This document shows, in pieces, positions 2,852-24,000 of a stretch of 24,000 bases of DNA. The stretch's first letter is position 1. Each line of letters starts with the position of its first letter. The notes under the pieces are model-generated. The model did not search any database, was not told where the DNA came from, and saw only the letters and a list, made by a program, of their open reading frames with translations. The DNA lies in assembly GCF_022026155.1 (NCBI RefSeq), contig NZ_CP085041.1, forward strand, positions 70,306 to 94,305, written 5' to 3'. This DNA is from Dissulfurimicrobium hydrothermale. Lineage in GTDB: Bacteria; Desulfobacterota; Dissulfuribacteria; Dissulfuribacterales; Sh68. The position numbers and the translations under genes are program-made.

Positions 2852-4199
2852 AAAACGCCTGCTCTCGATAGCAGGCTCTGATCCGAGCGGCGGGGCCGGC
2901 ATCCAACAGGACATAAAGGTCTTTACGGCCCTGGACGCATACGGCGCAGCGGTGATCACGGCCCTGACCGTCCAAAACACCCTTGGTGTAAAGGACGTTG
3001 TGCCCATAGATGCAGACCTTGTTGCAAGACAGGTCGAGGCGGTACTCGAAGACATAAGGCCCGACGCCATAAAGACCGGGATGCTCGCCAACCCGGAGAC
3101 TGTAGAGGCCGTCTCCCGCACTGTCTCGTCATTAGCAAGGGATGCAATGCTGGTTGTTGACCCTGTGATGACTGCAAAGGGCGGTGCGGCCCTCCTTGAA
3201 AAGGGTGCGGTCTTCGCCCTGAAAGACCGCCTCTTGCCCCTTGCTGATGTCGTAACGCCGAATATCCCTGAAGCAGAGACCCTGCTCGATAGACGGATAC
3301 CGGATGCCGGAGCCATGTCCAGGGCGGCGCTTGACCTCCTGCATCTGGTCAAAAAAGGTGGCGCGGTGGTCTTGAAGGGCGGTCACCTTGAAGACGGCAT
3401 GGCGCTGGATGTGGTTGCAACCCCAAACGGTGTAACTGAATTGCCGCACGACCGCATCCATACCACGCACACACACGGTACCGGCTGCACATTCGCATCC
3501 GCGCTCGCTGTATTCCTTGCCAAGGGCTGCAACGTGATTGAGGCCGCCGGAAAGGCCAAGGCCTTTGTGACAACGGCAATCAGGGGGGCGTTTAAAATAG
3601 GCCGCGGTATCGGGCCCACCAACCCCATCGCCCCACTTGAAAACAAACTTGAGAGGTTTGATGTCATCAAATGTCTCGAAGAGGCTGCAAGTCGCCTCTC
3701 TTCTATTCCATGCAGGGCGCTTGCGCCTGAGGTGCAAATAAATATCGGCTATAGCCTCCCTTGGCCTGATTCCATCATGGATGTGGCTGCGTTTCCGGGG
3801 CGCATCATAGGTTTCAAGAACGGTGTCAAGGTGGTCTCATGTCCTGAATTCGGGGCATCGAGCCATGTCGCCCGCATAATACTGACCGCCATGGGTTTTG
3901 ATCCGGCATTCAGATCGGCCATGAATATCCGCTTCGACGAGGATTATATTAAAAAGGCTGCCGGACTTGGGCTTGCGGTTCAAGAATTTTCAAGGGATGA
4001 AGAGCCGGAAGACATGCGCGTAAGAGAGGGTTCGACCCTCTCCTGGGGGGTAAGAACGGCCATAGAGAGGGCAGGCCGGGTGCCTGATCTGATATTCGAC
4101 CGGGGCGCAGCGGGCAAGGAACCCATGATCCGGCTCCTTGGGAAGGACCCTGCCGGAGTGGTCGAAAAGGCCCTCAAAATAGCATCAATCGCTTTATGA
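2841..4199 (+). CDS. thiDN: Bifunctional ThiD (HMP/HMP-P kinase) fused to a ThiN-type thiamine-phosphate synthase domain (ThiDN)
   Basis: The N-terminal half has LSIAGSDPSGGAGIQQDIKVF and THGTGCTF, which are ThiD hallmarks. The C-terminal ~185 aa (EVQINIGYSLP...FGASSHVARIIL...GKEPMIRLLG) resembles the ThiN domain. I prefer the ATG at 2841 because GGGAGG lies at 2833-2838; the track start at GTG 2823 is an alternative. The gene overlaps the thiC stop. Confidence 0.85.
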   Translation: MRSKKRLLSIAGSDPSGGAGIQQDIKVFTALDAYGAAVITALTVQNTLGVKDVVPIDADLVARQVEAVLEDIRPDAIKTGMLANPETVEAVSRTVSSLARDAMLVVDPVMTAKGGAALLEKGAVFALKDRLLPLADVVTPNIPEAETLLDRRIPDAGAMSRAALDLLHLVKKGGAVVLKGGHLEDGMALDVVATPNGVTELPHDRIHTTHTHGTGCTFASALAVFLAKGCNVIEAAGKAKAFVTTAIRGAFKIGRGIGPTNPIAPLENKLERFDVIKCLEEAASRLSSIPCRALAPEVQINIGYSLPWPDSIMDVAAFPGRIIGFKNGVKVVSCPEFGASSHVARIILTAMGFDPAFRSAMNIRFDEDYIKKAAGLGLAVQEFSRDEEPEDMRVREGSTLSWGVRTAIERAGRVPDLIFDRGAAGKEPMIRLLGKDPAGVVEKALKIASIAL

Positions 4200-5683
4200 A
4201 GATACCCGCAAAAGAGATAACGGAAGTTGCAGAGGAGCTGGTGCAGCTCGCAAATTTCTACCTCCCCGAGGACGTCTTGGCCGTGCTATCTCAGGCCCTT
4301 GCAAGGGAATCATCGCCTACGGGCAGACTCATCCTTAATATGATCCTTGAAAACAGCCGCATTGCGAGGCGGGACCACCTCCCCATCTGCCAGGATACAG
4401 GGATCAACGTACTCTTCGTTGAGATAGGAAGGTCTATCTCGATCGACGGCGGCCTCATCCATGCGATAAACCAGGGGGTGGCGTCAGGCACACGCAAGGG
4501 ATATCTGAGATGTTCTGTCTGTGACCCGATAACACGCAAGAATACGGGCGACAACACCCCGGCTGTAATCCACGTTGAACTTACAGACCGGGATGACCTC
4601 GTTATAGAATGCCTGCCAAAGGGCTGCGGGAGCGAAAACATGAGCGCCCTCTTCATGCTGCCGCCTTCAACCGGCGTTGACGGCATAGTGAAGGCAGTTG
4701 TGGACACTGTCTTAAAGGCAGGCCCGAATCCATGCCCGCCTGGGGTGATTGGCATCGGGATCGGGGGGACCATGGAACGTGCCGCTATCCTTTCCAAAAA
4801 GGCCCTTTTGAGACCCATAGGGACACCCAGCCCGAGGGACGAGCTTGCAAGGCTTGAAGCCAGACTCCTGGACGAGATAAACCGCTTGGGGATTGGCCCG
4901 CAAGGGCTTGGCGGGCATATAACCACCCTTGGCGTGGCGATCGAGGCCTGTCCGTGCCACATTGCAAGCCTGCCCGTGGCCGTAAACATCCAGTGCCATG
5001 CGGCTAGACATGCGAAGGCCGTCTGGCATGACGGCCGATGGACCGTGGGGACGGATGTCAGCCCCACCGCCGACCAAACGGATGTAGAATGCAGATATGC
5101 GCCCTTTAGTCAAGACAAGGTCATAAGCATTGAACTCCCAGCCCGGAAGGAGATACTCTCCGGTCTAAGGGCGGGTGACTGGGTCCTTTTGAATGGTCTG
5201 CTCTATACTGGCCGCGATCAGACCCACAGGCGCCTTGTCAAACTCCTGGATCAGGGCCAACCCCTGCCTGTGGATCTCAAAGGCCAGACTATCTACTATA
5301 CCGGGCCGTCTCCGGCCAGACCTGGAAGGGTTATAGGCTCGGCAGGCCCAACCACCAGCTACCGCATGGACGCCTATATGCCAAGGCTTCTGGAGGAGGG
5401 GATCGTCGCCACGATCGGCAAGGGCCGCCGCTCCCTGGAGGTGCGTGAGGCCATGAAACGCCATGGTGCGATCTATCTCGCCACGATAGGCGGGGCAGGG
5501 GCCTATCTTTCACACTGCATAACCAGATGCGAACTCGCGGCCTTTCCTGAGCTCGGCCCTGAGGCCATGTACCGTCTCCAGGTAAGAGACCTCCCAGCCG
5601 TCGTAATAAACGATGCAACAGGCGCTGATCTCTACGAAGAGACAGCGAGACGACGAAACAAAACCTACATGCCCTCTCACTGA
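4196..5683 (+). CDS. Class I (Fe-S) fumarate hydratase / hydro-lyase with fused alpha and beta domains
   Basis: 495 aa with LPICQDTG, GCGSEN and conserved Cys residues of the Fe-S hydro-lyase alpha domain. The beta domain carries YTGRDQTH...GPTTSYRMD...IGKG. Its ATGA start/stop overlaps thiDN. Confidence 0.8.
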   Translation: MKIPAKEITEVAEELVQLANFYLPEDVLAVLSQALARESSPTGRLILNMILENSRIARRDHLPICQDTGINVLFVEIGRSISIDGGLIHAINQGVASGTRKGYLRCSVCDPITRKNTGDNTPAVIHVELTDRDDLVIECLPKGCGSENMSALFMLPPSTGVDGIVKAVVDTVLKAGPNPCPPGVIGIGIGGTMERAAILSKKALLRPIGTPSPRDELARLEARLLDEINRLGIGPQGLGGHITTLGVAIEACPCHIASLPVAVNIQCHAARHAKAVWHDGRWTVGTDVSPTADQTDVECRYAPFSQDKVISIELPARKEILSGLRAGDWVLLNGLLYTGRDQTHRRLVKLLDQGQPLPVDLKGQTIYYTGPSPARPGRVIGSAGPTTSYRMDAYMPRLLEEGIVATIGKGRRSLEVREAMKRHGAIYLATIGGAGAYLSHCITRCELAAFPELGPEAMYRLQVRDLPAVVINDATGADLYEETARRRNKTYMPSH

Positions 5684-7053
5684 GCGACCGTCGACCTCCA
5701 TCCCGTGTCTTCCCTCCATCTGATAGGGAAGCGGCAGGTCACCGTAGTCCCCTTGCCCTGAACGCTCTCTATCTCGATATCACCCTGATGTTCTTCCAAT
5801 ATCTCCTTTACCAGAAAAAGCCCTAGGCCTGTACCTCCAGGCTTGGTGGTAACAGGGGCGGCAAAGAGCCTCTTCTGCACGTCAGGCGGTATCCCTGGGC
5901 CCTGGTCTGAGATTACTACCGCGGGCTTACCCTTCTGTCGCGTGATTGCCACACGGACAACCCCACCGCCAGGCGACGCCTCAAGGGCGTTTCTCAATAT
6001 GTGAAGAAGGGCGGTCTTCAAAACCCTCCTGTTGGCCATGATCTCTATGCGGTCTTCTGGCATGTCCGCCATAAGGGTTACGCCCTTCTTCAAAAGACTC
6101 GGCCGCCAGGTATTCAACACCTCGTTCACAATCCCCTTTAAATCCTCCCTGGCAAAAGACCTCACTTCTTTCTCGGCCAGCTCCTCAAAACTCTTTACAA
6201 ATTCCTCGAGCTCAACAACACCCTGTCGAATAACCTCGAGCCTGCGCCTGGTCTCCTGTCCGACAGCCGGATCTTTTTTAAGTATCGCCCTTATGAGGCC
6301 GCCGATCACCGTCACAGGATTACGTATCCGGTCGGCTATCCTCAGGGCCATCTGGATGGTGGCGTGTTCCCTGGCCATTATTTCAAGGTCCTGGCCGAGC
6401 TGCAGGAGTTCCGAATTCATCCTATCCAACTCCCTGTTTTGAACGGTGGTCTGTTCAAGAAGCCTCAAGACCTCTTCATGTTTGAGCCTCAGGTTCTCAA
6501 TATAAGACTCCTCAGTGTCTCTGAAAAGTTCATTTCTGAGGGAGACCTCTTTCTGACTTATCTCCTCCCACGGCCGTCTTATCCCCCATTTTATCGCCTT
6601 GACCTTGAGCGGCGCCCCATGGACGCCTGATTGGATCTCCACATAATCAAGAACGCGCTTGAGGCCGGAGACGGCGCGCAGCTTGCCCAGATCTTCTATG
6701 TCAAGCGGACACGTCCCGTCGCTGAAGGCCGATGGATCGCAAGCCCTTTTCCCCTCGAAAAAAAGCTCTATCCCACCCTGGTCCTGGCCTATAGCGGGTC
6801 CGATCTTGCAACAGACGATCCTAAAAGTAACGATCCCTCCACCCGACATCCTAACGATGAGGCGGGCCATCTCCGACGCTGACGTCCCGACCTGTGCTGT
6901 CGCCACCCGGTCCAGACCACACATCCGGCAAAGCAATTTGGCCTTCATGCGAACCTTTGGGATATCGTCCTGTCTCTTCACGACGAGCGTAAGGACATGG
7001 AGCCTCTTGTCTATCTTGTCTATGTCTTTGTCTTTGTTCGTCGCCACTTCCAT
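5677..7053 (-). CDS. Histidine-kinase-like ATPase: intact HATPase_c, a DHp-like segment lacking the phospho-acceptor His, and a degenerate RsbT-like N-terminal domain. Terminal gene of the stressosome-type operon
   Basis: The C-terminus has an N-box HILRNALEAS, a G1 box DQGPGI and a G2 box GGTGLGL. The H-box-like motif reads RIADRIRNPVTVIGG, with D241 where HisKA proteins have H. A coiled-coil linker covers about residues 170-235. The N-terminus (~20-145) loosely resembles RsbT/RsbW. The gene overlaps the upstream gene by 34 nt. Confidence 0.7.
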   Translation of the reverse strand: MEVATNKDKDIDKIDKRLHVLTLVVKRQDDIPKVRMKAKLLCRMCGLDRVATAQVGTSASEMARLIVRMSGGGIVTFRIVCCKIGPAIGQDQGGIELFFEGKRACDPSAFSDGTCPLDIEDLGKLRAVSGLKRVLDYVEIQSGVHGAPLKVKAIKWGIRRPWEEISQKEVSLRNELFRDTEESYIENLRLKHEEVLRLLEQTTVQNRELDRMNSELLQLGQDLEIMAREHATIQMALRIADRIRNPVTVIGGLIRAILKKDPAVGQETRRRLEVIRQGVVELEEFVKSFEELAEKEVRSFAREDLKGIVNEVLNTWRPSLLKKGVTLMADMPEDRIEIMANRRVLKTALLHILRNALEASPGGGVVRVAITRQKGKPAVVISDQGPGIPPDVQKRLFAAPVTTKPGGTGLGLFLVKEILEEHQGDIEIESVQGKGTTVTCRFPIRWREDTGWRSTVAQ

Positions 7054-8162
7054 ACCGCCAGCGATGCGTCATCCTCAGAGGATGATTCGGGATTGAAAAA
7101 AAGATGCGCCCATATGCCGGACGGGATGGGCTTGAGCGCAATCTCCGGAGGGAGATCCGGCATGGGCCTGACCCCGTCCGAATGCATGAAGCAAAGTACC
7201 TGTGAACTGAAATTGTATATCTCAAATCCCTTTCGAGCCAAACGGCCGTTTCCGAGCACGCCCGGTCTTGATGTCAGCCCGCGCCTTATGCCGTCCAGAT
7301 ATAATGTGCAATTCACATTGCCTATGCCCGCAGCAGCAACCTTTGAAAGACCTCGGTCAAGCACCAGGACGTGGACAGACGCCCCGTCTGAGCCAGCAAG
7401 GGCCTCGCCGGCAGCCTCAAGGACCCTATCCAGCCCAATATTCAACGGAAGCGCTGCCAGGACGTCTATGACCGTCTGAGCCGTCCTGGCAGCGGATATC
7501 CCATGCCCCGTCGCATCGATAAGCGCCATGCGGCAGAAACAGCCGTCGTCCTGGCAGTAAAATGCGTCACCAGAATATGTCTCGCCTGGATAAGGACGGA
7601 TCAGTGCCGAGACATCGACCTCGTCTATTTTTTGTATCTGCGACCCTGCAAAGTCATTGGTCTCTTCATTCAGCGGGCAGACATCCAGGCAGGTCTTGGT
7701 CGCATGGTCAAAGAGAACCGCAATCGCCACCGTACCGAAACGAAAATCAACACCGAGGTCAGGACATGGAGAGGTCCCGACCATCGTCGAGCAGATGTAA
7801 AACCTGTCAGAAAGGCGCCTTACCGTCCCAAGCCCGACCCCGAGCCCGCCTGATGTGCTGAAACCATCCTTCATGGCCTCCTTTACATCCTGGATCCCAG
7901 GGCCTTCGTCAAGGCTTGCTATGCCAAGTTGCGGGGTACTGTTAAGGACCAGGCCGCTTATGCGGATCAGGCCGTTTCTGGTATGGTGTTCAAGATGATT
8001 TTGCGCAAGTTCGCTCGCCACAAGCACAGCCTCTTTTATCCTTGCCCCAGAGAAAGACAACCGATCCGCAGCCACGGCCGCAAGCTGCCTTGCGATGACC
8101 ACATCTTCAGGCCCTGTTATCCTGATTTCAGCCCATACAGGCGGCGTCTTCAGATGATCCAC
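7020..8162 (-). CDS. ATP-binding SpoIIE/PP2C-family protein phosphatase (RsbT-like kinase domain fused to PP2C; RsbX-position gene)
   Basis: The N-terminus has ASELAQNHLEH, LDEGPGI and KDGFSTSGGLGVGLG, which is very close to my recollection of B. subtilis RsbT (EDGFSTSGGLGAGL). The C-terminus has PP2C motifs SGDAFY, LIDATGHG, HSDGV and EDDASLAV. Confidence 0.85.
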   Translation of the reverse strand: MDHLKTPPVWAEIRITGPEDVVIARQLAAVAADRLSFSGARIKEAVLVASELAQNHLEHHTRNGLIRISGLVLNSTPQLGIASLDEGPGIQDVKEAMKDGFSTSGGLGVGLGTVRRLSDRFYICSTMVGTSPCPDLGVDFRFGTVAIAVLFDHATKTCLDVCPLNEETNDFAGSQIQKIDEVDVSALIRPYPGETYSGDAFYCQDDGCFCRMALIDATGHGISAARTAQTVIDVLAALPLNIGLDRVLEAAGEALAGSDGASVHVLVLDRGLSKVAAAGIGNVNCTLYLDGIRRGLTSRPGVLGNGRLARKGFEIYNFSSQVLCFMHSDGVRPMPDLPPEIALKPIPSGIWAHLFFNPESSSEDDASLAVWKWRRTKTKT

Positions 8163-8569
8163 TTTATGACCTCCACCTGTGTACCGTGCGGAAGCAGTGT
8201 CGAGATGCGGACGTCGTCAGAGAGGTTGCCGATGGCGGACATCCCGAGACCAAGGCCCTTGTCCTCTGAAAAACCCGGTTCAAGGGCCTTTTCGAGGTCA
8301 ATTATCCCTGGGCCCGAATCCCTAGCTACAATCCTAATGCCGGTCCTTTTGCCCGTTTTCAGAACGCTCAGGCATATCTCGCCGCCGCCTCCAGCATGTC
8401 TCAGGATATTCTGCCCAAGCTCGTTTATAATGGTAAATATCTCCGTCCGCACCGGTTCCCTTATGCCCAATATCTTGAAAAACCCCCTCGCCTCCGCCCG
8501 GATCAGGCTCAGCCCATGGGCATGATCAACCACGGCGCAGGTCTCTTTCTCTATATCCAGCCCGAACAT
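8150..8569 (-). CDS. rsbT: RsbT-like serine kinase / anti-sigma regulatory factor (stand-alone HATPase)
   Basis: 139 aa with INELGQNILRHAGGGG, ARDSGPGI and GLGLGMSAI, ending in VEVIKW. The size and motifs match RsbT. It overlaps the downstream gene by 13 nt. Confidence 0.85.
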   Translation of the reverse strand: MFGLDIEKETCAVVDHAHGLSLIRAEARGFFKILGIREPVRTEIFTIINELGQNILRHAGGGGEICLSVLKTGKRTGIRIVARDSGPGIIDLEKALEPGFSEDKGLGLGMSAIGNLSDDVRISTLLPHGTQVEVIKWII

Positions 8570-8615
8570 CAGCAGACTATACTAAATATGGAAAGGACCT
8601 AAGCATATGCCGCCG

Positions 8616-8963
8616 TCACCTGTTCAGTTTTGCAAGCGCCTGTTCGACATCAAGTGCAAATCCCACCCCTTTCAACCTGATATCAAAGTCGATAAGGGTG
8701 AGGATCACCGGCGCCTGAAGCCCGGCCACCATGACCTTTGCCCTAAGAAGACTGAGGAACGAGACAAGCCCTGCCAGGTGTTCGGCAAGAAAGGTATCAA
8801 CTATCTCGACGTCATGGAGATCGATTATCACAGCCCTTGCATTTTTTTCAGCCACACGTTCGCCAAGGAGCCCGGTAAGGGACTTTATACTCCGGTCGTC
8901 AATCTCCTCCTGGACCGAAACCAGAAGGCAGTCACCCAGCGAAAAGATGGAAAATGGCTCCAT
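8616..8963 (-). CDS. rsbS: RsbS-like single-STAS stressosome scaffold protein
   Basis: 115 aa consisting only of a STAS domain. DLHDVEIVDTF matches the phosphorylatable DxxGxxxxDS/T loop, with Thr at the position of RsbS Ser59. Confidence 0.85.
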   Translation of the reverse strand: MEPFSIFSLGDCLLVSVQEEIDDRSIKSLTGLLGERVAEKNARAVIIDLHDVEIVDTFLAEHLAGLVSFLSLLRAKVMVAGLQAPVILTLIDFDIRLKGVGFALDVEQALAKLNR

Positions 8964-8969
8964 TGCGTG

Positions 8970-9842
8970 CTAACCCCGCCCAAGCTCTCCGTCAGTGACC
9001 AGATCTATAGAGCTCCTCTTCCTCTGTATCTCAACTATGGCCAGATGAAGGGCGTCGCTCATACGGCTACGTACCGTAATGTTGGACATATTCACGCCAA
9101 GGTGCGCCATGGTAAGGGCTATGTGCGGGGAGATGCCTGTAAGTATGGCCTCACTGCCCATCAGGCGCACGGCTTCCACCGTCTGCAGGAGCCGGTTCGC
9201 AACCTCCGTATCCACGGTCGGCACCCCTGTTATATCAATGATGACAAATGGGGACCTTGTGCGCTCGATGACCTCCAGGAGACGCTCCATGGCGAGACGC
9301 GCCCTGTGGCTATCTAGTGTCCCGATAAGCGGCAGGGCCAGTACACCTTCCCAGAGTTCTATCACCGGCGTGGAAAGCTCGAGTATCTCATCCTGTAGGT
9401 GGCGGATGTATTCCTCGCGCTTCTTTATAATCTCCTCCTGCTGCCGCTGGATCAGTTTCTCCTTTTCCAGGCGGTCCGAGATATCGATGAAGTGCTCGAC
9501 ACAGCCCACCACCTTGCCTTCGTGGTTTTTTAAAGGCCTGGCCGCATATTCTATGGGGATCTCTTTTCCGTCATGGCGGAGCACCGTCTGACCATGGCAG
9601 GCCTCGTCTGTATCTGTTGCGACAAGGCAGGCGCACTTGTCCGTGCCGCACATGGGGGTATCGAATATCTCGCTGCACTTGCGGTCAAAACAGTCCCCTG
9701 GCGTACGCCCCACCAGGGCTGCCGCGCCCTTGTTGATGATCTGGATATTGTGCTCAAGGTCTGTAACGAATATACCGGACGGGACGGCGTTTATGATCTC
9801 GAACATGAAGCCCTCATCGGCCTTGTAATCGGTTATATCCAT
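8970..9842 (-). CDS. rsbR: RsbR-like stressosome sensor: N-terminal Cys-rich PAS domain, coiled-coil linker and C-terminal STAS domain
   Basis: 290 aa. The PAS-like N-terminus (~1-125) contains 7 Cys. The STAS C-terminus has STPVIELWEGVLALPLIGTLD and IIDITGVPTVDT, the RsbR-type phospho-Thr loop. A strong RBS (AAAGGAGG) lies upstream, and rsbS follows after 6 nt. Confidence 0.85.
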   Translation of the reverse strand: MDITDYKADEGFMFEIINAVPSGIFVTDLEHNIQIINKGAAALVGRTPGDCFDRKCSEIFDTPMCGTDKCACLVATDTDEACHGQTVLRHDGKEIPIEYAARPLKNHEGKVVGCVEHFIDISDRLEKEKLIQRQQEEIIKKREEYIRHLQDEILELSTPVIELWEGVLALPLIGTLDSHRARLAMERLLEVIERTRSPFVIIDITGVPTVDTEVANRLLQTVEAVRLMGSEAILTGISPHIALTMAHLGVNMSNITVRSRMSDALHLAIVEIQRKRSSIDLVTDGELGRG

Positions 9843-9901
9843 TGCAGCACGCCTCCTTTAAGTTTTATATACATCCCCTCTAGGGCCTATATGTTTATAT
9901 C

Positions 9902-10091
9902 TCATAGAGAATCAAGTTCTATGTAGGCCTCTTTTTTACCCTTGTCTCTATCCATTTTTGCCTGTCTAAGGTCTTCTGTCACCTCGTTATCCAGATCCAA
10001 CCCCAACAATTCTTCCATTTCTATAATCCTTCCATGAAATAATTACCCCGGCAGGCCTGCCCTTTATAATTTTTTTATAAATAGTAAGCAT
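9902..10091 (-). pseudogene. Frameshifted, probably N-terminally truncated remnant of a small Phd/YefM-like antitoxin
   Basis: Hand translation. The first frame runs from ATG 10091 (RBS GGAGG at 10098-10103) and reads MLTIYKKIIKGRPAGVIISWKDY.... The +1 frame from ATG 10018 reads MEELLGLDLDNEVTEDLRQAKMDRDKGKKEAYIELDSL*. Deleting the single A at 10022 joins them into a 62-aa sequence that resembles the strand-then-helices layout of an antitoxin. No toxin gene is adjacent. Confidence 0.3.
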
Positions 10092-10136
10092 AATATCGCC
10101 TCCAACATTTTAAATTATAGCATAATTTTTATCTTA

Positions 10137-11762
10137 TCATGCCTTTTTTGGTATGCGCAGGGTGAATCTCGCCCCCTTGCCCTCTTCCGATTGAACACCT
10201 ATCTCTCCGCCCCATCCCTGAACGAGCCTATGGACTATCGCAAGCCCGAGGCCTGTTCCGTCCGGCCTTGTGGTGAAAAACGGGTCGAATATCCGGATGA
10301 GGTCATCCTTTTTAATACCGCAGCCATTGTCTTCGATGGTTATCATGACAACGCCGTCCTCCTCCATGGCCTTGACCTTGATCCTGCCCCCCTTGCCCTG
10401 TATAGCCTGATGTGCGTTCAAGATGATATTGAGTATGACCTGCCTGAACTGACCTGGATCAATATCCATAACGAGGTCATCAGGGATATCGATCTCAATC
10501 CCGACACCGGGATCTTTTGATGATCCGCCAGCCCCAGGCGCGGTCCTGCGCAAACCTGCAACGGCGAGGCTCGATTCAAACTCCCGCCGCACATTTATAC
10601 TGGCGCTCTCCCTGCCCTCGGGCCTTGCATAGAGCAGAAATGACCTGGTAAGTCCGTTCAGCCGCTCCGCCTCCCTTGCTATTATGTCAAAGAGCCGTTC
10701 GCCGTCCGGGTGCACAAGGCCCTGTTCCCTTAAAAATTCCACCGCCCCGGAAAGAGATGCAAGCGGGTTCCGGATCTCGTGCGCAAGCCCTGCCGCCATC
10801 CCGCCCAGTGCGGCGAGGCGATCCATACGCCTCAGCGCCTCTTCCCTGGCCTTTTCACCTGTGATGTCCTGAAATATGAGGCCAAAGCCCAACAGCCTCC
10901 CACCATCACCCAGGAGAGGGAAAGGCGACATACCCACTATCTTCGCCTGGCCGTCAGGCCCTTTGTGCCCGAGTTCAAGCCTCCCGCCCCTCACAGCCGC
11001 GCCCTTGTCGTCGAAAAGCCTCTTCGCGCCCTCAGGCCAGACCTCCGAAAGCGGCGCGCCGAGACGGTCCTGCACGTCTTTACCGAGTATCTGCACGGCT
11101 GAGCGGTTGACGGTAAGCACAAACCCGTTTTCATCTACAACTATAAGGCCCGAGCTCAGGCTGTCGGCCAGGTGGCGGTGGACCTCTTCTATCCTCTTCA
11201 GGTCAACAACCGCCCTTGAAAGCCTGGCCTCAGCGCGCATCAGGCGCTGGACAAGGAGTATCCCTAGAAACGCCGTAAGATTGAAGGCCGCCATGTGGAT
11301 AAAAAAGGTAAGCGCGGCGTCAATAATATCCCTTTCCCCGCTGACACCCCACAGGGATGCCATGGCGTAAAAGACGGTGCTCAAGAGGGCAGCCATGGTC
11401 CCTCCGACCCTGCCCTCGACTAGGCAGGCCGAGACTATGACCAGCGGATAGAGAAAGGTGAACGGGCTTGAGGTCCGGCCCGTCAAGAATATGGCAAGCC
11501 CCACCATCAGGGCGTCCAACGCGATCTGGGCCTTGAAGAGCCACTTTCCGCCCCTGCCAGCCCTGTACCAGAGGTTATAAAAGAGGGTAAGGAAAAGGGC
11601 CGCGCCTGTCAGCATGACCCCCCAGAGACGACCCTGCCCTCCGGCGAACTGCCCAGGCATGAAATAGCCTATCAGGGCGGCAAAGACGATCAGGAGCACC
11701 CTTACAGCAATGAGCCAGTAAAACCAGCGCGGTTCAATCGGGGCCTGTCCGCTAGAGGCCAT
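10137..11762 (-). CDS. Membrane sensor histidine kinase (polytopic PilS-like N-terminal domain, PAS, HisKA, HATPase_c)
   Basis: 541 aa. The first ~170 aa form about 6 hydrophobic helices. The H-box is LAHEIRNPLASL, the N-box is NAHQA, and the G-boxes are DNGCGI and GTGLGL. It overlaps the upstream RR gene by 11 nt. Confidence 0.9.
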   Translation of the reverse strand: MASSGQAPIEPRWFYWLIAVRVLLIVFAALIGYFMPGQFAGGQGRLWGVMLTGAALFLTLFYNLWYRAGRGGKWLFKAQIALDALMVGLAIFLTGRTSSPFTFLYPLVIVSACLVEGRVGGTMAALLSTVFYAMASLWGVSGERDIIDAALTFFIHMAAFNLTAFLGILLVQRLMRAEARLSRAVVDLKRIEEVHRHLADSLSSGLIVVDENGFVLTVNRSAVQILGKDVQDRLGAPLSEVWPEGAKRLFDDKGAAVRGGRLELGHKGPDGQAKIVGMSPFPLLGDGGRLLGFGLIFQDITGEKAREEALRRMDRLAALGGMAAGLAHEIRNPLASLSGAVEFLREQGLVHPDGERLFDIIAREAERLNGLTRSFLLYARPEGRESASINVRREFESSLAVAGLRRTAPGAGGSSKDPGVGIEIDIPDDLVMDIDPGQFRQVILNIILNAHQAIQGKGGRIKVKAMEEDGVVMITIEDNGCGIKKDDLIRIFDPFFTTRPDGTGLGLAIVHRLVQGWGGEIGVQSEEGKGARFTLRIPKKA

Positions 11763-13212
11763 GTTTTGCCAGCCTGTACCTGAAGGCGCGGAAATTCATG
11801 CCGAGGAGGGCCGCGGCCTCGGTCTTCACGCCGTTCGCCCTCTTCATGGCCTTCAAAAGGAGCCTCCTCTCGATCTCGGCCAGAAAGGCCTCCATATCCA
11901 GCCCTTCGTCAGGAATATCAGGGTCGATTTGCAGGGTGTCAGCATCTTTTGTATCAGGGTCTCTTTTGCCCCCCTCTTTAAATCTCGATATGGAGAGGCT
12001 GTCCGGCAGGATGAGATTCGAGGCCGCAAGCGTAACGCTGCGCTCGATGATGTTTTCAAGCTCCCGCACGTTTCCAGGGAAATGGTAGCCTGTCAGGGCC
12101 TCCATGGCATAGCTTGAGATGCCCTGTACCTCTTTGCCCTGTTCTTTGGAGTACTTGTCCAGAAAATATTGCACAAGAATGGGGATGTCCTCCGGGCGTT
12201 CCCTCAAGGGGGGCATGTGGATATGGATGACATTCAGCCTGAAGTACAGGTCTTCCCTGAAACGCCTTGCCATGACCTCTTCTTCGAGGTCCCTGTTCGT
12301 GGCGGATATGATCCTCACATCCACCCGGACCTCGCGCTCGCCGCCAAGGGGCGTAAAGGTCTTTTCCTGCACGACCCGCAGGAGCTTAGCCTGAAGCGCC
12401 ATTGAGAGCTCACCTATCTCGTCCAGGAAGATCGTACCCTTATCGGCCTGTGCAAAGAGACCACGCCTTGCCGCGAGCGCCCCTGTAAACGCCCCCCTTT
12501 CATGGCCAAAGAGCTCGCTCTCAAGGAGGTTCTCAGGTATACCGCTCGCATTCACCACCACAAAGGGCATCCCGGCCCGGTTTCCAAGGTTATGGATGGC
12601 CCTGGCTACAAGCTCCTTTCCCGTGCCGCTCTCCCCGGTTATGAGGACACTCGACGGGCTCGATGCAACCCTTGGTATGAGTTCAAAGATCTTGAGCATG
12701 GCCGGGCTTGCGGCAAGCATCCGGTCACACCTTGCCGCCTTCGGGGCCTTTTCAGGCAGATATGCCCCCACAGCCTCTGCGCCCCCCGAAACAGTGCCGC
12801 CCTTATTGCCTGCGTTGAACGAAACGGCCTGCCTTATCACCTTGCGTATCTCGTCTATGCGGAAGGGCTTGGTAATGTAGTCCAGGGCGCCCTCTTTCAT
12901 GGCCGAGACGGCCGAGTCCATGGAACCGAAGGCCGTGATGAGGATGACCGGCGTCTGCGGCCGCACCTTCTTGACCTCCCGAAGGAGCGCAACGCCGTCC
13001 ATGCCAGGCATGCGGATGTCGCTCAAGACCACCGAGACGTCGGCCCTGTCTTTCAATATCCCAAGGGCCTCATCACCCGAAGCAGCAAGGACCACGTCAT
13101 AACCATCTTTTTGAAGGAGTATCTCAAGAAACTCCCTCAGGCTCCGGTCGTCGTCCGCCACGAGGACCACAGGCCTGCCGGGGGACGGCGCTGCAAGTTT
13201 CGATTCCTTCAT
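11752..13212 (-). CDS. Sigma-54-dependent response regulator (NtrC family: REC, AAA+, Fis-type HTH)
   Basis: REC domain has VLVADDD...DIRMPGMDG. AAA+ domain has Walker A GESGTGKE and the GAFTGA sigma-54 contact loop. The C-terminal HTH reads AAALLGMNFRAFRYRLAKHGL. I prefer the start at ATG 13212 (MKESKLAA...); the track ORF extends to 13296. Confidence 0.9.
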   Translation of the reverse strand: MKESKLAAPSPGRPVVLVADDDRSLREFLEILLQKDGYDVVLAASGDEALGILKDRADVSVVLSDIRMPGMDGVALLREVKKVRPQTPVILITAFGSMDSAVSAMKEGALDYITKPFRIDEIRKVIRQAVSFNAGNKGGTVSGGAEAVGAYLPEKAPKAARCDRMLAASPAMLKIFELIPRVASSPSSVLITGESGTGKELVARAIHNLGNRAGMPFVVVNASGIPENLLESELFGHERGAFTGALAARRGLFAQADKGTIFLDEIGELSMALQAKLLRVVQEKTFTPLGGEREVRVDVRIISATNRDLEEEVMARRFREDLYFRLNVIHIHMPPLRERPEDIPILVQYFLDKYSKEQGKEVQGISSYAMEALTGYHFPGNVRELENIIERSVTLAASNLILPDSLSISRFKEGGKRDPDTKDADTLQIDPDIPDEGLDMEAFLAEIERRLLLKAMKRANGVKTEAAALLGMNFRAFRYRLAKHGL

Positions 13213-13367
13213 CGGCCACCGCTGTAACAAACTCGGGATATCGCGCTCCGCGCACCCGTGTCCAATATTTGATTTTATTTTACACCTAGACAACACAAAA
13301 AAACATGGTATTAAAATAGTAAAGATGCTGAGATTGCGTCCAGGGCCTTTGGTTGCTCAATTTTTTA

Positions 13368-13631: not shown

Positions 13632-14108
13632 GTGAATACATTAAAAAACACAAAGATGACGACCGACGCCCGAAAGACGAGAATTTACCTGCTTACCTGC
13701 CTCCTGGCGATAGGGGTCTGCCTCTCGGCATGCGCTGGTCTTCAACAAAAGACCTCTGAAGAACGTCTCCTTTCAAGGGCCAGGTCCTACTGGGCTGCAG
13801 TGGCAGCGGGTGATTACGTCTCTGCATATCAATACGAAGAGGTCTCAAAGACAGGGGCCCAGCCCATAAGTGCATACGTGAGAAAGGCCGGGCTTATCTA
13901 TAAGTCCGCCGAAGTCACCGGCGCAAAGATCGAGGGTGACAGGGCGACGGTTGACGTCAAGATCGGCTATATCATACCTGCGATGGGTTCGCATGTGTTT
14001 AATACAGACGCCAAAGACGTCTGGCTTATAATAGATGGTGACTGGTACCATCACGCTGAAGGGATCATGAAAGATCTTAAACGGATTGAAAGCGGTGAAA
14101 AGCGATGA
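13632..14108 (+). CDS. Small lipoprotein of unknown function (possibly an NTF2/DUF4878-like fold)
   Basis: The signal peptide ends in the lipobox LSAC (…LLAIGVCLSAC|AG). The mature part has the pattern YWAAVAAGDY...ATVDVKI...WLIIDGDWYH, which is common in small NTF2-like lipoproteins. The start is either GTG 13632 or ATG 13656. Confidence 0.65.
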   Translation: MNTLKNTKMTTDARKTRIYLLTCLLAIGVCLSACAGLQQKTSEERLLSRARSYWAAVAAGDYVSAYQYEEVSKTGAQPISAYVRKAGLIYKSAEVTGAKIEGDRATVDVKIGYIIPAMGSHVFNTDAKDVWLIIDGDWYHHAEGIMKDLKRIESGEKR

Positions 14109-14256: not shown

Positions 14257-15126
14257 ATGAAAAAGATTTTTTCTCTCTCACTCAGTCTTGTTGCAGCATT
14301 GATGCTTGCAATGTGGTCAAGCCAGGCGGGGGCCATAACGCTTGGTGAGTATGCCCCTGGACAGCTTGTGCCTTTCGTGGTACAAGGGGACAATATAGAC
14401 ACAGTGGTGGGTCTCACGTGCAAAAATACAAGTGGATGCACTGTTTACTGGACCTTCTTTGATGTGAACAGCAACCATGTAACTGACAGTCAATTCAAAA
14501 TTTCAGCAAACGGTTTTTATCCTTTTTCATGGAAGAAATATTCAGGGGTAGGCCTTGCAAATACACGAGGATATCTGGTCTTCTCATCTGGCTCTTTGGC
14601 AACAACGTCTACTACTTCTGATATTGCAGCTAATGCATTTTTAGTTGACACCACCGCCAAGGATGCCGTCTTTGTGCCTGTTTTACCTTTAGCAGGTACT
14701 GATTATGCTGCCGGTACCGACCTAACCAAGATGACTTCAACCAGCATCATTTCAGCTGTGGCTGCTACCGCCCCTGGCAAGACCCTTGATGTCCGTTACT
14801 GGATTGACCCGGCATACAGTGCTACTACTACTGTAGAATTCTGGTCAGTTTGCGATATAACCGGTAATCAGACTGTTGATATCTTTGACGATCAAGAGAA
14901 CCGCCAATCTGTCAATATTCCTTTTGCAAATGCTGAGCTAAACACTATAGATCCATCAACAATCGTGGGAAGGCCTGCCAGCTTTGTGGATGGCTTTATA
15001 AGATTCGTAGTGCCAGCGCCTGCTACTTGCGCAACAGGGGAAACAAACGACATGCTGGTCTTCAGCTATGTTGACTCGCACTTGATCGGCGCCACCCAGA
15101 CCATGCTTGCTGGCGAACAAAACTAG
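14257..15126 (+). CDS. Secreted Thr/Ala/Val-rich protein of unknown function with two apparent tandem beta-rich domains
   Basis: 289 aa. It has a Sec signal peptide, MKKIFSLSLSLVAALMLAMWSSQAGA|ITLGEY. The gene has a strong RBS and a strong downstream terminator. The sequence shows an internal repeat pattern. I recognise no enzyme motif, and there is no CxxCH or PEP-CTERM motif. Confidence 0.75.
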   Translation: MKKIFSLSLSLVAALMLAMWSSQAGAITLGEYAPGQLVPFVVQGDNIDTVVGLTCKNTSGCTVYWTFFDVNSNHVTDSQFKISANGFYPFSWKKYSGVGLANTRGYLVFSSGSLATTSTTSDIAANAFLVDTTAKDAVFVPVLPLAGTDYAAGTDLTKMTSTSIISAVAATAPGKTLDVRYWIDPAYSATTTVEFWSVCDITGNQTVDIFDDQENRQSVNIPFANAELNTIDPSTIVGRPASFVDGFIRFVVPAPATCATGETNDMLVFSYVDSHLIGATQTMLAGEQN

Positions 15127-21371: not shown

Positions 21372-22760
21372 CTATTCGCCGCTTAGTCCCAATTGTGCGA
21401 TTTTCCTATGCAAATGCCTCCTTTCCAGCCCTATAGCCTCTGCAGTTTTGGTTATATTGCCTCCATGTTCGGCCAATTTTTGCGCCAAATATTCCCGTTC
21501 GAACATCGCCTTGGCGTCGCGGAAGCTGTCACAGGAAAGCCATGGCCTGACGCCGTAGTCTGATGACCCTGCCGACGCCCGTTCGTCTTTAAGGCCCTTT
21601 TGATATGAAAGCGGCAGGTCTTCCAAGGTGATTTCAGATCCCTTTGAGAGTATTACCAGTCTTTCCGCAAGGTTTTTGAGTTCCCTCACATTTCCAGGCC
21701 AGTCGTGTCTTTTCAGTGCCTCTATTACATCGGGCGCAACTTTTTTATGGCCCTTTGCAGCCTTTTGGGCAAATTCTTGCAAAAAGACGTTCAAGAGGAG
21801 ATGGATATCTTCCTTGCGTTCCCTCAACGGTGGTACCTCAATCGGTATGACGTTCAAGCGGTAATATAGGTCTTCACGGAAGTTTCCGGCCTCTATCTCC
21901 TTCTCCAGGTCTTTGTTTGTGGCTGCTATGATGCGCACATCCACCTGGATGGTCTTTGCGCCGCCGACCCGTTCGAACCTCTGTTCTTGGAGTATCCTCA
22001 GGACCTTTGCCTGGGTTTTGAGGCTCATGTCGCCTATCTCGTCCAGAAAGAGCGTCCCACCGTTCGCAAGGTCGAATTTGCCCTGCTTCATGGATGTCGC
22101 CCCTGTAAACGCCCCCTTTTCATGTCCGAAGAGCTCACTTTCAATGAGTTCTTCAGGTATTGCCGCGCAGTTCACCTCGACGAGTGGCTTGCGCCCCCTT
22201 TTGCTCAGTCTATGGATCGTCTGCGCAACTAGTTCCTTGCCGGTGCCGTTTTCCCCCTGAATGAGTACCCAGGCATCCGTAGGACCGACGACAGCTATCT
22301 GTTCCTTAAGTTTCTGCATGGCCTGGCTCTGACCGACAAGTTCCCTAGATAAATCGGTCTTTTGTCGCAGCAATACGTTTTCTTCCTGCAACTCCTTGTA
22401 ATTAAGGGCGTTTCTGATAGTGAGGACAAGCTGTTCATAAGAAAGAGGTTTTTCTATGAAATCATATGCGCCGAGCTTTGTGGCCTTTACGGCCGTCTCT
22501 ATATTGCCATGACCTGACATTATTATGACTGGCAGAAACGGCCAGTCATCTTTGATCTTTTTTAACACATGGAGTCCGTCCATGCCTGGCATCCAGATGT
22601 CGAGGAGGACGAGATCCGGCAGGTCGTCCGCTATAGCGGCAAGGGCGGCCTCCCCATTGAGTGCCGATTTGACATCAAAACCCTCGTCTTCGAGGATCCC
22701 CTGCACCGTCTCAATGATGGTCTGTTCGTCATCGGTTATCAGTATTTTTTTCTTGAGCAT
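21372..22760 (-). CDS. Sigma-54-dependent response regulator (NtrC/NtrX-like: REC, AAA+, HTH)
   Basis: REC domain has ILITDDE...DIWMPGMDG. AAA+ domain has GENGTGKE and GAFTGA. The C-terminal HTH reads ITKTAEAIGLERRHLHRKIAQLGL. I prefer the ATG at 22760; TTG 22769 is the track start. The gene overlaps the 3' end of the HK gene. Confidence 0.9.
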   Translation of the reverse strand: MLKKKILITDDEQTIIETVQGILEDEGFDVKSALNGEAALAAIADDLPDLVLLDIWMPGMDGLHVLKKIKDDWPFLPVIIMSGHGNIETAVKATKLGAYDFIEKPLSYEQLVLTIRNALNYKELQEENVLLRQKTDLSRELVGQSQAMQKLKEQIAVVGPTDAWVLIQGENGTGKELVAQTIHRLSKRGRKPLVEVNCAAIPEELIESELFGHEKGAFTGATSMKQGKFDLANGGTLFLDEIGDMSLKTQAKVLRILQEQRFERVGGAKTIQVDVRIIAATNKDLEKEIEAGNFREDLYYRLNVIPIEVPPLRERKEDIHLLLNVFLQEFAQKAAKGHKKVAPDVIEALKRHDWPGNVRELKNLAERLVILSKGSEITLEDLPLSYQKGLKDERASAGSSDYGVRPWLSCDSFRDAKAMFEREYLAQKLAEHGGNITKTAEAIGLERRHLHRKIAQLGLSGE

Positions 22761-24000
22761 GGCCACCAATGGACTGTTGTTGAGGAAAGATCAGTGTAAA
22801 CCTTGTCCCATACGGGACATTATCTTCTACTTTAATTCGACCATTATGGTCCATGACGATCGAATTGACAATAGCAAGGCCGAGTCCAGTACCCCCCCTT
22901 TTTTTTGAAAAATATGGTTCGAAAATGCGCTCTCTGTCTTCAGGGGTGATGCCTGTACCAGTGTCGGCCACCCAGACACCCACCTCCCTCTTTTCCGAGT
23001 CAAAAAAGACGCCTACTTCCACCGAGCCACCATCGGGCATTGAGGCTACTGCGTTATCGAGGAGGTTTATGATCGCTCTCTTGATTTGATCCGGATCCAG
23101 CACGGCCTCAGGCATTATATCAGGGCGCTTTAATGTAAAAGCTATAGCCGGATGCGCTTCACGATAAAGGGCTACGACCTCCTCGGCAAGCGCGTCCAGC
23201 CTGACTGCTCTTGGCCTAATAGTCGGCATCCGCGCAAAGTTTGAAAACTCATTTACCAGCCTTTTTAATTCATCAGCCTGTTTTATGATGGTATTCGTGC
23301 AGGCGTCAAAGACCTCCCTTGCCTCTTTATCCAGGCCTTCCATATATTTTTTTCTGAGTCGCTGGGCCGAGAGCTGGATAGGTGTGAGCGGGTTTTTCAC
23401 CTCATGTGCTATACGTCTCGCCACCTCGCGCCATGCAGCGAGCCTCTGGATCTTTTCCAGCTCCGTAAGGTCGTCGAATACGATCACCACTCCATGCGAC
23501 ATGCCGTCTTGGTCTCTCAGGACTGTAAAACTTACGATGAGAGAGAGATACCTGTCCTTTACCTGTATGCGCATCGGGCGCTGAAGCGTCCCCTTGCCGG
23601 TTGAGGCGATCTCCCTTCTGATGGCCTCGAATTCATTCACCTGGTCCTTGTCCAGTAGTTTATGATAAGGCATGCCTACGATCTCATCCGCCTTGAGCTT
23701 TAATATGGCCTCTGCAGACCTGTTCATTGTGGTGACGATCCCGTTCCTGTCGATTGAAATGACCCCGGCGGCCACATTCTGGAGTATGATCTCTATGTAG
23801 CGGCGGCGTTGCTCGATCTCGTAATAGCTCTTTTTCAGTTGTCTCGAGGCGTTTTCCGCCCTGCGTCTAGCCTCCTTAAGATCTTGTGTCATTGTATTAA
23901 ATGCACGGACAAGCGAGCTCAGTTCGTCCCTTCCATGGGTCTCAAGACTAAAATCCAGGTCGCCTTGCGCGATCCTGTGTGTAGCCTCGGCCAGCATCTG
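22729..24000 (-). CDS. NtrY-like sensor histidine kinase (HAMP, PAS, HisKA, HATPase_c); the N-terminus lies beyond the right window edge
   Basis: The HAMP segment reads RIAQGDLDFSL...LVRAFNTMTQDL. The H-box AHEVKNPLTPIQLSAQRL is the NtrY-type signature. The G-boxes are DTGTGI and GTGLGL. The reading frame stays open to position 24000. Confidence 0.85.
   Translation of the reverse strand, partial: QMLAEATHRIAQGDLDFSLETHGRDELSSLVRAFNTMTQDLKEARRRAENASRQLKKSYYEIEQRRRYIEIILQNVAAGVISIDRNGIVTTMNRSAEAILKLKADEIVGMPYHKLLDKDQVNEFEAIRREIASTGKGTLQRPMRIQVKDRYLSLIVSFTVLRDQDGMSHGVVIVFDDLTELEKIQRLAAWREVARRIAHEVKNPLTPIQLSAQRLRKKYMEGLDKEAREVFDACTNTIIKQADELKRLVNEFSNFARMPTIRPRAVRLDALAEEVVALYREAHPAIAFTLKRPDIMPEAVLDPDQIKRAIINLLDNAVASMPDGGSVEVGVFFDSEKREVGVWVADTGTGITPEDRERIFEPYFSKKRGGTGLGLAIVNSIVMDHNGRIKVEDNVPYGTRFTLIFPQQQSIGGHAQEKNTDNR

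Follow-up and report, generated by a model that had tools for sequence, protein, structure and literature searches.

The 24,000-nucleotide (nt) stretch of the Dissulfurimicrobium hydrothermale genome analysed here (NZ_CP085041.1, positions 70,306 to 94,305; called the window below, all positions being those of the window) carries a partner-switching operon of the stressosome type, the last gene of which encodes a pseudo-histidine kinase, and we are highly confident that this anatomy is genuine. Five genes are packed on the minus strand, and their products are named, in gene order, R (8970–9842, 290 amino acids (aa), PAS-STAS), S (8616–8963, 115 aa, STAS only), T (8150–8569, 139 aa, RsbT-type kinase), X' (7020–8162, 380 aa, RsbT-type kinase plus PP2C) and HK' (5677–7053, 458 aa, histidine-kinase-like). 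The gaps of 6 nt and 46 nt and the overlaps of 13 nt and 34 nt described in an earlier, sequence-only reading of the window were reproduced; the public annotation places the HK' start two codons later (P0001, 456 aa), and the last overlap would then be 28 nt. A convergent fumarase gene (4196–5683) overlaps the HK' stop by 7 nt. The best explanation that we can offer for the whole locus is that HK', gated by the stressosome and dead as a kinase, would act as a phosphatase or binder of a sigma-54 response regulator. This explanation is put forward tentatively, its chance being a little below even, and the proposed output mechanism, taken alone, is held more loosely.

The C-terminal half of HK' is built like the core of a histidine kinase. 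Pfam recovered HATPase_c at 86 bits and HisKA at 22.8 bits, under the cut-off of 26.9. The full-length AlphaFold2 model (predicted local distance difference test score, pLDDT, 82) contains an alpha/beta domain (aa 14–160), a very long helix (aa 181–260), a second helix (aa 266–297) and a catalytic, ATP-binding (CA) domain. The coiled coil and the dimerization and histidine phosphotransfer (DHp) domain together span aa 181–297 (nt 6163–6513, minus strand), and the CA domain spans aa 301–445 (nt 5719–6153, minus strand) with the N-box HILRNALE, the G1 box DQGPGI and the G2 box GTGLGL; the C-terminus bears the family motif FP.RW.E. In Foldseek searches this half resembled the DHp-CA structures of ZraS, HK853, WalK, DivL and CckA, with ZraS as the top fold match, and the best family matches of the core were AtoS and ZraS, both NtrC-family kinases. 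We conclude that the HK' core is of the NtrB/AtoS/ZraS type, whose members pair with sigma-54 response regulators. Its H-box, however, departs from canonical HisKA: in IAD241RIRNP (nt 6316–6339, minus strand; Asp241 codon at nt 6331–6333) the His is replaced by Asp and the acid at +1 by Arg, with the Asn at +4 retained. For comparison, a PilS-like histidine kinase encoded in the same window reads A-H-E-I-R-N-P. A240, D241, R244, N245 and P246 of HK' were invariant in 25 of 25 sequences (alignment A1); the linker of HK' also has an invariant motif, NLR(A/L)KH192EE (nt 6466–6495, minus strand). Judged as a HisKA kinase, HK' has the N, G1 and G2 boxes of the CA domain and lacks the phospho-accepting His; in keeping with a pseudo-histidine kinase, the DHp-CA fold is kept, the His is lost, and the protein is conserved in about 46 species with many invariant columns, as purifying selection would have it.

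The N-terminal domain of HK' (aa 14–160; nt 6574–7014, minus strand) is a degenerate RsbT/RsbW/SpoIIAB-like domain. It had no match in Pfam, and PDB searches with the single sequence and with a profile gave chance matches only. Compared by hhalign with the RsbT alignment, it matched over its full length (129 columns, probability 97.8%, E = 8e-13). Modelled alone with AlphaFold2, the domain reached a pLDDT of 88 and a predicted template modelling (TM) score of 0.84. Its top Foldseek matches in the PDB were SpoIIAB (E = 9e-6), UsfX, RsbW (target-normalised TM scores 0.72–0.78) and SiaB, all of them STAS-binding GHKL proteins. The ATP residues are lost: the N-box Asn is replaced by an invariant Arg64 (ASEMAR), and neither a DxGxG G1 motif nor a G2 motif is present. 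The N-terminus of HK' is a pseudo-RsbT domain, the third RsbT-like domain of the operon. The description of HK' as an atypical histidine-kinase-like protein, made from the letters alone, is borne out and can be sharpened to an H-box with Asp in place of His and a degenerate RsbT-like N-terminus.

A scan of one genome per species returned 58 related loci, in all of which open reading frames (ORFs) were called and labelled with hidden Markov models made from our own alignments. R-S-(T)-X'-HK' were found on one strand in about 46 Thermodesulfobacteriota genomes, including those of Dissulfuribacterales, Thermodesulfatator, Desulfobulbales and Desulfurivibrio. Because the gene order is identical in about 46 species-level genomes, the arrangement is not a chance one. 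The H-box A-D-[RKQ]-[IV]-R-N-P was present in 49 of 50 HK' copies, the pseudo-N-box E..R likewise in 49 of 50, and the linker motif K-H192-[ED]-E in all 50. The T gene is optional, being present in 25 of the 50 loci. The CA domain of HK' is degenerate in 12 of the loci without T, where the N-box Asn, G1 and G2 have all gone, and a thirteenth copy (L049) is truncated before G1; the Asp H-box was untouched in both situations. Since the 12 loci preserve the DHp motif despite the decay of the CA domain, we take the DHp surface to be the functional element of the protein. Two minimal loci (L005 and L050) contain R, S and HK' only. HK' was thus always present, whereas T was missing from half of the loci and T together with X' from the minimal ones. 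With nothing but these three genes in the minimal loci, HK' has no candidate connection to R and S there other than its pseudo-RsbT domain. The single H-box exception (L040, 9992–11263) is an orphan relative of HK' that combines a pseudo-RsbT-like N-domain with a canonical A-H-E-I-R-N-P, with no R or S gene within 10 kb; it may be an ancestral-like form that still bears the histidine.

The upstream part of the operon corresponds to a known module. Pfam assigned PAS_4 (E = 2.9e-13) and STAS (E = 2.3e-13) to R, the PAS sensor lying at aa 18–124 (nt 9471–9791, minus strand) and the STAS domain at aa 162–259 (nt 9066–9359, minus strand). R matched Listeria RsbR (E = 2.7e-27) and Vibrio RsbR (E = 3.4e-26) over the STAS region and the linker helix. 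In these alignments Thr212 (TVDTE, nt 9204–9218, minus strand) falls on the 'VVDT' site and Thr244 (IALTM, nt 9108–9122, minus strand) on the 'IAQT' Thr of Listeria RsbR; position 212 was T or S in 32 of 46 orthologs. S, in which Pfam recovered STAS (E = 5.2e-9), matched the RsbS proteins of Listeria (E = 4.4e-21) and B. subtilis (E = 5e-19); residue by residue, these alignments put Thr57 (IVDTF, nt 8790–8804, minus strand) at the 'IDSF' Ser of Listeria and Bacillus RsbS. This Ser is the RsbS phosphorylation site (S59 in B. subtilis, S56 in L. monocytogenes). A deposited variant chain (9o4r_a) departs from wild type at precisely the Thr57-equivalent position (IDAF), and position 57 was T or S in all orthologs detected. 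A phosphomimetic Asp at the phosphorylation site of S was considered and rejected, as the 'IDSF' Ser aligns with T57, not with D51. In loci with T, R212, R244 and S57 were all Thr. In T-less loci S57 was Ser in nearly all cases where S was detected, R212 was mostly Ala or Ser, and R244 was mostly Val or Ile. The PAS domain of R also contains six Cys (C51, C56, C65, C70, C72 and C114), kept in 45–46 of 46 orthologs, which suggests a metal- or Fe-S-binding sensor of redox state or oxygen in these strict anaerobes.

T was recognised by Pfam as HATPase_c_2 (43.3 bits, cut-off 27.4), and its ATP motifs are intact (N-box ELGQN, G1 DSGPG, G2 GLGLGM). In the PDB sequence search its closest solved relative was SpoIIAB (E = 1.6e-5), and no RsbT structure was among the matches. 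X' begins with a kinase domain (aa 1–135; nt 7758–8162, minus strand; ELAQN, DEGPG, GLGVGLG) that was detected as HATPase_c_2 at 34 bits and matched the RsbT-type (T) alignment by hhalign at a probability of 99.85%. It continues into a PP2C domain (aa ~190–375; nt 7038–7595, minus strand; GD199, DATGHG216–221, SDG328–330, DD364–365) that scored 17.2 bits with SpoIIE, under the cut-off of 25. All metal-binding motifs of the PP2C domain (GD199, D216xxGHG221, D329G330 and D364D365) were conserved in a 21-sequence alignment (A2), and the kinase and PP2C motifs were intact in almost all loci. Since both sets of motifs are complete, we read X' as a fusion of an RsbT-type kinase with an RsbX-like phosphatase, both halves of which are catalytically equipped as far as motifs can tell, the PP2C domain being joined to a kinase domain where RsbX has a single domain. 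The RsbU_N docking domain was absent from both X' and HK' in the Pfam search.

Thus profile searches recovered the STAS and RsbT-type domains, and the domain assignments that the sequence-only reading had made for the five proteins stand, as does its identification of an RsbR-RsbS-RsbT module. The STAS loops that it had quoted as phosphorylatable are real, T57 of S and T212 of R aligning with known sites. R, S, T and the phosphorylatable STAS positions have the sequence features of an RsbRST(X) module.

Fusions of the X' kind also occur in more distant operons, from Alphaproteobacteria and other phyla. The gene after R-S-T-X' in those operons encodes a genuine histidine kinase with an intact HATPase_c_2 domain at its N-terminus, for example an HWE-type enzyme in Stakelama (L006, HHRTGNN) and a HisKA-type enzyme (L007, SHMTHEFRTP). 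Two further features of X' were noted. The linker between its domains has a Cys pair, C125-x8-C134-P (aa 120–136, window 7755–7805), that is conserved in Thermodesulfobacteriota and absent from the distant X' homologues. In Dissulfurirhabdus thermomarina (L001, 9048–10004) the X' ortholog of 318 aa keeps the kinase motifs and has a decayed PP2C domain (no GD, DxxGHG or DD); this locus is without a separate T gene, a natural kinase-only variant of the module.

The intact ATP motifs of HK' in the window might be taken as a hint that its CA domain is a Ser/Thr kinase acting on a STAS domain or another protein, in the manner of RsbT and RsbW or of the mitochondrial kinases PDK and BCKDK. GHKL Ser kinases with histidine-kinase-like architecture do exist, and BCKDK and PDK were among the weak fold matches. 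However, two intact kinases of the RsbT type are already encoded in the operon, the 12 loci mentioned above have a decayed CA domain, and the H-box region of the DHp domain is the most constrained part of the HK' core. We consider a Ser/Thr kinase the least probable of the readings weighed here, and a very remote one.

In the explanation that we favour, R and S would form the scaffold, T and the N-domain of X' would phosphorylate T57 of S and T212/T244 of R, and the PP2C domain of X' would erase these marks. Because the N-domain of HK' has the fold of STAS-binding kinases, we propose that the pseudo-RsbT domain docks on the STAS scaffold as RsbT does. It would be released or re-oriented according to phosphorylation state, and such docking would replace the usual hand-over from RsbT to RsbU_N. 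The docking state would in turn control the dimeric coiled-coil/DHp output of HK', following the linker logic put forward for RsbU and similar effectors (PMC12143880). Because both the His and the adjacent kinase-only acid are missing, HK' is not a conventional kinase; it would not autophosphorylate on His, and its DHp helix would be the part that acts on a two-component partner. Among HisKA proteins, the NtrB-like CrdS being one, only kinase activity needs the acid at H+1 and only phosphatase activity the T/N at H+4 (PMC3510030), and the CheZ and NarX phosphatases use DxxxQ (Willett and Kirby 2012, PMC3510030). In sequence, D241-x-x-x-N245 resembles the latter motif, reproducing its acid-amide spacing. 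The most likely action of HK' would be that of a dedicated phosphatase, or a sequestering binder, of a phosphorylated NtrC-family response regulator. A sigma-54 regulator is proposed as the target because the core is of the NtrB/AtoS/ZraS type and because the wider family of proteins with Asp at this position, described next, is found repeatedly beside NtrC-type systems.

When the DHp-CA half of HK' was searched against 1.84 billion representatives and the best 150 clusters were examined, 56 of them had Asp where the His would be: 54 fit the motif and two are variants. The following residue was R, K, Q, N, G, S or C in these 56 clusters and never an acid. In their alignment the Asp was invariant and the +4 Asn nearly so, among proteins below 50% identity. 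The N-termini of these Asp-type proteins are diverse: PAS (~14), REC (11), Tll0287-like (3), HAMP (3), dCache (2), and MASE3, ETR1_N and RsbU_N (one each). The ten clusters whose members were examined all came from metagenomes and bore generic names only. Several of these proteins bear directly on the stressosome operon. In P0043 and P0045 a six-Cys PAS domain of the R type, with all six Cys kept, is fused directly to an Asp-type DHp-CA core, and these fusions tie the R sensor to the HK' output. An independent stressosome operon (L066, 1971–5849) encodes R, S, T, a second T-like protein and a separate small PP2C, and ends in P0178, in which RsbU_N is fused to an Asp-type DHp-CA core; in this operon two separate genes replace the X' fusion, and RsbU_N serves as adaptor where HK' has pseudo-RsbT. 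Other members lie beside conventional two-component genes. In Nitrospirota (L059, 9242–14251) a Tll0287-like::Asp-type protein is followed by a genuine Tll0287-like histidine kinase and a sigma-54 regulator, and in P0158 an Asp-type core is fused to PAS and a genuine histidine kinase. REC::Asp-type proteins in two loci (L054 and L068) adjoin single-domain receivers and large PAS or GAF/PAS kinases, and in L068 a hybrid histidine kinase also precedes the REC::Asp-type gene. Whether the A-D-[RKQ]-[IV]-R-N-P cassette represents a large unrecognised transmitter class with its own chemistry, made up of dedicated phosphatases or binders, we judge to be evenly balanced. One form of it would be a CheZ-like phosphatase that serves regulators and uses the DHp domain as its scaffold. 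Stressosomes would then be one of several inputs to this class, through pseudo-RsbT, RsbU_N or a direct PAS fusion.

The same conservation could be read in favour of a working autokinase, with either Asp241 as the acceptor, giving an acyl-phosphate and hence an acetyl-phosphate-like donor, or the linker His192. Asp241 is strictly invariant across the 56 clusters and in 49 of 50 loci, and the coupled change of the +1 acid to Arg, Lys or Gln looks like adaptation, not decay. All 50 loci have KH192[ED]E, the PAS fusions have an H-D or H-E, and in the window, as in most loci, the ATP motifs of the CA domain are complete. However, the 12 loci that lost the N-box Asn, G1 and G2 retain both Asp241 and His192. 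In the model a single long helix carries both residues, with His192 placed 49 residues (seven heptads) above Asp241 and far from the CA domain; His192 is also absent from the Asp-type proteins of Nitrospirota. Literature searches gave no precedent for Asp autophosphorylation by a GHKL domain. An autokinase is therefore improbable in our estimation, and its boldest form, in which the Asp-type cassette in general donates an acyl-phosphate on Asp to receiver domains, would be a long shot.

L066 also bears on a reading in which the real output is T, or the N-domain of X', acting on an unlinked target such as an RsbU_N phosphatase with RsbV/W and a sigma factor, HK' being an accessory or feedback component. 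This would be the canonical Bacillus logic, and L066 shows that an RsbU_N-type hand-over occurs in related operons. In L066, however, RsbU_N and the Asp-type core are parts of one protein; half of the loci lack T, and L005 and L050 lack X' as well, whereas HK' is always there; and no sigma factor, RsbV or RsbW gene is recurrent near the loci. We give this reading only a slim chance.

The neighbourhood of the operon was examined by comparing 132 flanking proteins (two genes on each side of about 36 non-redundant loci) with Pfam. No sigma factor, STAS/RsbV, RsbW-type or GGDEF family was among the 25 commonest flanking families of these 132 proteins, which agrees with the non-canonical output proposed from the window alone: across orthologous loci no sigma factor, RsbV/W or GGDEF gene recurs beside the operon, and no receiver or sigma-factor module is consistently adjacent. 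The accompanying statement that no response regulator is adjacent held in part. HK' has no dedicated receiver gene, but a PilS-like histidine kinase (10137–11762, minus strand; 6TM_PilS-PAS-HisKA-HATPase_c in Pfam) and a sigma-54-type response regulator (11752–13296, minus strand; REC-Sigma54_activat-HTH_8) lie directly upstream of R (10137–13296 together), on the same strand and 294 nt away, the regulator being paired with this kinase of its own. A PilS/PilR-like pair occupies the same position in the window and in four other loci (L001, L003, L012 and L036; 72 nt from R in L036), these lineages being Dissulfuribacterales and a Desulfobulbus-like metagenome-assembled genome; in a further locus (L030) a regulator about 2.1 kb upstream of R was the only member of the pair to be detected. 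The PilS-like kinase with its sigma-54 regulator was the only recurrent signalling neighbour of the module. Under the phosphatase/binder explanation this adjacent pair would be the prime candidate target in the window, as a candidate only. A second sigma-54 pair near the end of the window, consisting of a kinase (22729–23997, minus strand; HAMP-PAS-HisKA-HATPase_c), called as the longest ORF inside the window and with an unreliable 5' end because the window stops 3 nt further on, and a regulator (21372–22769, minus strand; REC-Sigma54_activat-HTH_8), is another possible partner of HK' (21372–23997 together).

Alternatively, HK' may regulate another histidine kinase, for example the PilS-like one, through a DHp heterodimer or complex, as RetS does with GacS and DivL with CckA, and the stressosome would gate this contact. 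Pseudo-histidine kinases that act on kinases are known (DivL, RetS and RocA), DivL and RetS were among the fold matches of HK', and Asp-type proteins stand beside a genuine same-sensor kinase in L059 and are fused to one in P0158. The PilS-like kinase lies upstream of the operon in several lineages. Most loci are without an adjacent histidine kinase, however, and the +4 Asn and the D-x-x-x-N geometry suit an active site directed at a regulator better than they would a dimer contact. We considered whether HK' and the PilS-like kinase share partner specificity and dropped the idea: by eye the DHp residues after the H-box are dissimilar (V-T-V-I-G-G-L in HK', L-A-S-L-S-G-A in the PilS-like kinase), so that no sign of such specificity was found. 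A role in regulating another kinase is unlikely, though we regard it as the main competitor.

The same dissimilarity also weighs against the explanation that we favour, in which the PilR-like regulator is a target of HK', and other observations add to it. The PilS/PilR-like pair is adjacent in a minority only (5 of the sampled loci), and inheritance of the gene order could account for this. HK' has complete CA ATP motifs in the window and in most loci, and a pure binder or phosphatase would have no strict need of them. Nucleotide does stimulate the phosphatase activity of histidine kinases in EnvZ and NtrB. The strictness with which Asp241 and His192 are conserved would fit equally well with phosphorylation of one of the two, and every step of the mechanism is one that we infer.

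Other neighbours of the module were lineage-specific (for example a CLC channel). The genes downstream of HK' were considered as outputs and set aside: DUF1318 with a protein that has no Pfam match, glutamate-synthase-like genes (the Desulfurivibrio group) and a DnaJ-C28-like gene (L008 and L009) are each lineage-specific, and they are therefore treated as synteny. DUF1318 was the commonest flanking family, with 12 members. In L004 (11293–14366) and 11 similar Thermodesulfatator-like loci, a gene of 566–838 aa without a Pfam match overlaps the HK' stop and is followed by DUF1318, an arrangement that resembles ydbH-ynbE-ydbL of E. coli. Between the PilS-like kinase and R in the window, an AT-rich spacer of 294 nt (9843–10136) holds a 38-aa ORF (9902–10018, minus strand; MEELLGLDLDNEVTEDLRQAKMDRDKGKKEAYIELDSL), charged and helical-looking, and a weak sigma-70-like site (9982–9954). 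Scans around the operon for sigma-54 promoters and for sigma-70 promoters and terminators gave chance-level counts, with nothing claimable upstream of R. Farther along, the window between ~13000 and 16000 has a G+C content of 0.44–0.49, compared with 0.54–0.58 in the neighbouring sequence, and holds two ORFs (13632–14108 and 14257–15126), neither with a Pfam match.

Stressosome signalling outside the SigB paradigm is an unsettled question, and the HK' family addresses it. With an RsbT-like docking domain in the output protein itself, the wiring is simpler and testable, and natural variants can serve as controls: minimal R-S-HK' operons, an RsbU_N-fused version and direct PAS-output fusions. 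The analysis also exposes a sizeable unannotated family of histidine kinase look-alikes with an invariant Asp for His and with PAS, REC, Tll0287-like, Cache or RsbU_N inputs, which current annotation calls simply sensor histidine kinases. If the Asp-type proteins are indeed dedicated phosphatases or antikinases, many predicted two-component circuits of anaerobes are being read with the wrong sign.

Compared with the stressosome of Bacillus subtilis and Listeria monocytogenes (RsbR-RsbS-RsbT, followed by RsbU-RsbV-RsbW-SigB, with RsbX feedback), the operon has the same RsbR/RsbS/RsbT order and STAS phosphorylation positions, and a PP2C domain with intact catalytic motifs. It differs in that the PP2C is fused to a second RsbT-like kinase, that RsbU, RsbV, RsbW and a sigma factor are missing from the operon in the window, that the N-terminus of R is a six-Cys PAS domain and not a globin, and that the output protein has its own degenerate RsbT-like domain in place of RsbU_N. 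T is, moreover, dispensable across the family.

RSTX modules followed by histidine kinases are, in general, a described output class (Heinz 2022, PMC9237108). In the RSTX plus D1/D2 systems of Vibrio vulnificus and V. brasiliensis (PMC9237108; Jia 2016, PMC4976288) a histidine-kinase-type gene likewise stands directly after the module, there is no sigma factor, and the downstream protein has no RsbU_N. Unlike the Vibrio kinase, HK' lacks both the His and the acid next to it and includes a pseudokinase domain of RsbT-like character; no receiver gene is dedicated to it, and the sensor of the operon is PAS, not haem globin. In Vibrio, an interaction of RsbT with the downstream kinase could not be demonstrated (PMC9237108). 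For Moorella thermoacetica, MtR-MtS-MtT-MtX with MtG, an RsbU_N-GAF-GGDEF protein, is on record, as are proteobacterial RsbU_N::histidine kinase proteins (Quin 2012 and Heinz 2022, as cited in PMC12143880). The relative in L066 uses this same RsbU_N adaptor, placed before an Asp-type core; in the window, by contrast, the adaptor has the RsbT/RsbW fold and the effector is a histidine-less DHp-CA, not GGDEF or a genuine histidine kinase.

Among pseudo-histidine kinases, DivL, RetS, RocA and PsmA share with HK' a retained DHp-CA, the lack of canonical His autophosphorylation and a function through contacts with two-component partners. DivL has Tyr at the phospho-acceptor site, and RetS and RocA have other defects; to our knowledge, none of the four has been reported with an invariant Asp and Arg/Lys pair. 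In the literature searched, none of them fell into the HK' sequence family or was linked to STAS or RsbT. Phosphatase motifs offer a second comparison. Like DxxxQ of CheZ and NarX, HK' has an acid-x-x-x-amide pair, Asp241 and Asn245, on DHp helix 1; in the HisKA phosphatase motif E/DxxT/N, by contrast, the acid is at +1, whereas in HK' it is at the His position itself. Motifs of response-regulator phosphatases also include ExxN of CheX (PMC3510030). Nothing specific was described in the searched literature for RsbT-like::histidine kinase fusions or for a natural His-to-Asp HisKA family. The operon differs from both the Vibrio-type and the RsbU_N-effector classes in having a pseudo-RsbT adaptor and a histidine-less DHp-CA as effector; this variant is what is new, a two-component output as such having been described before.

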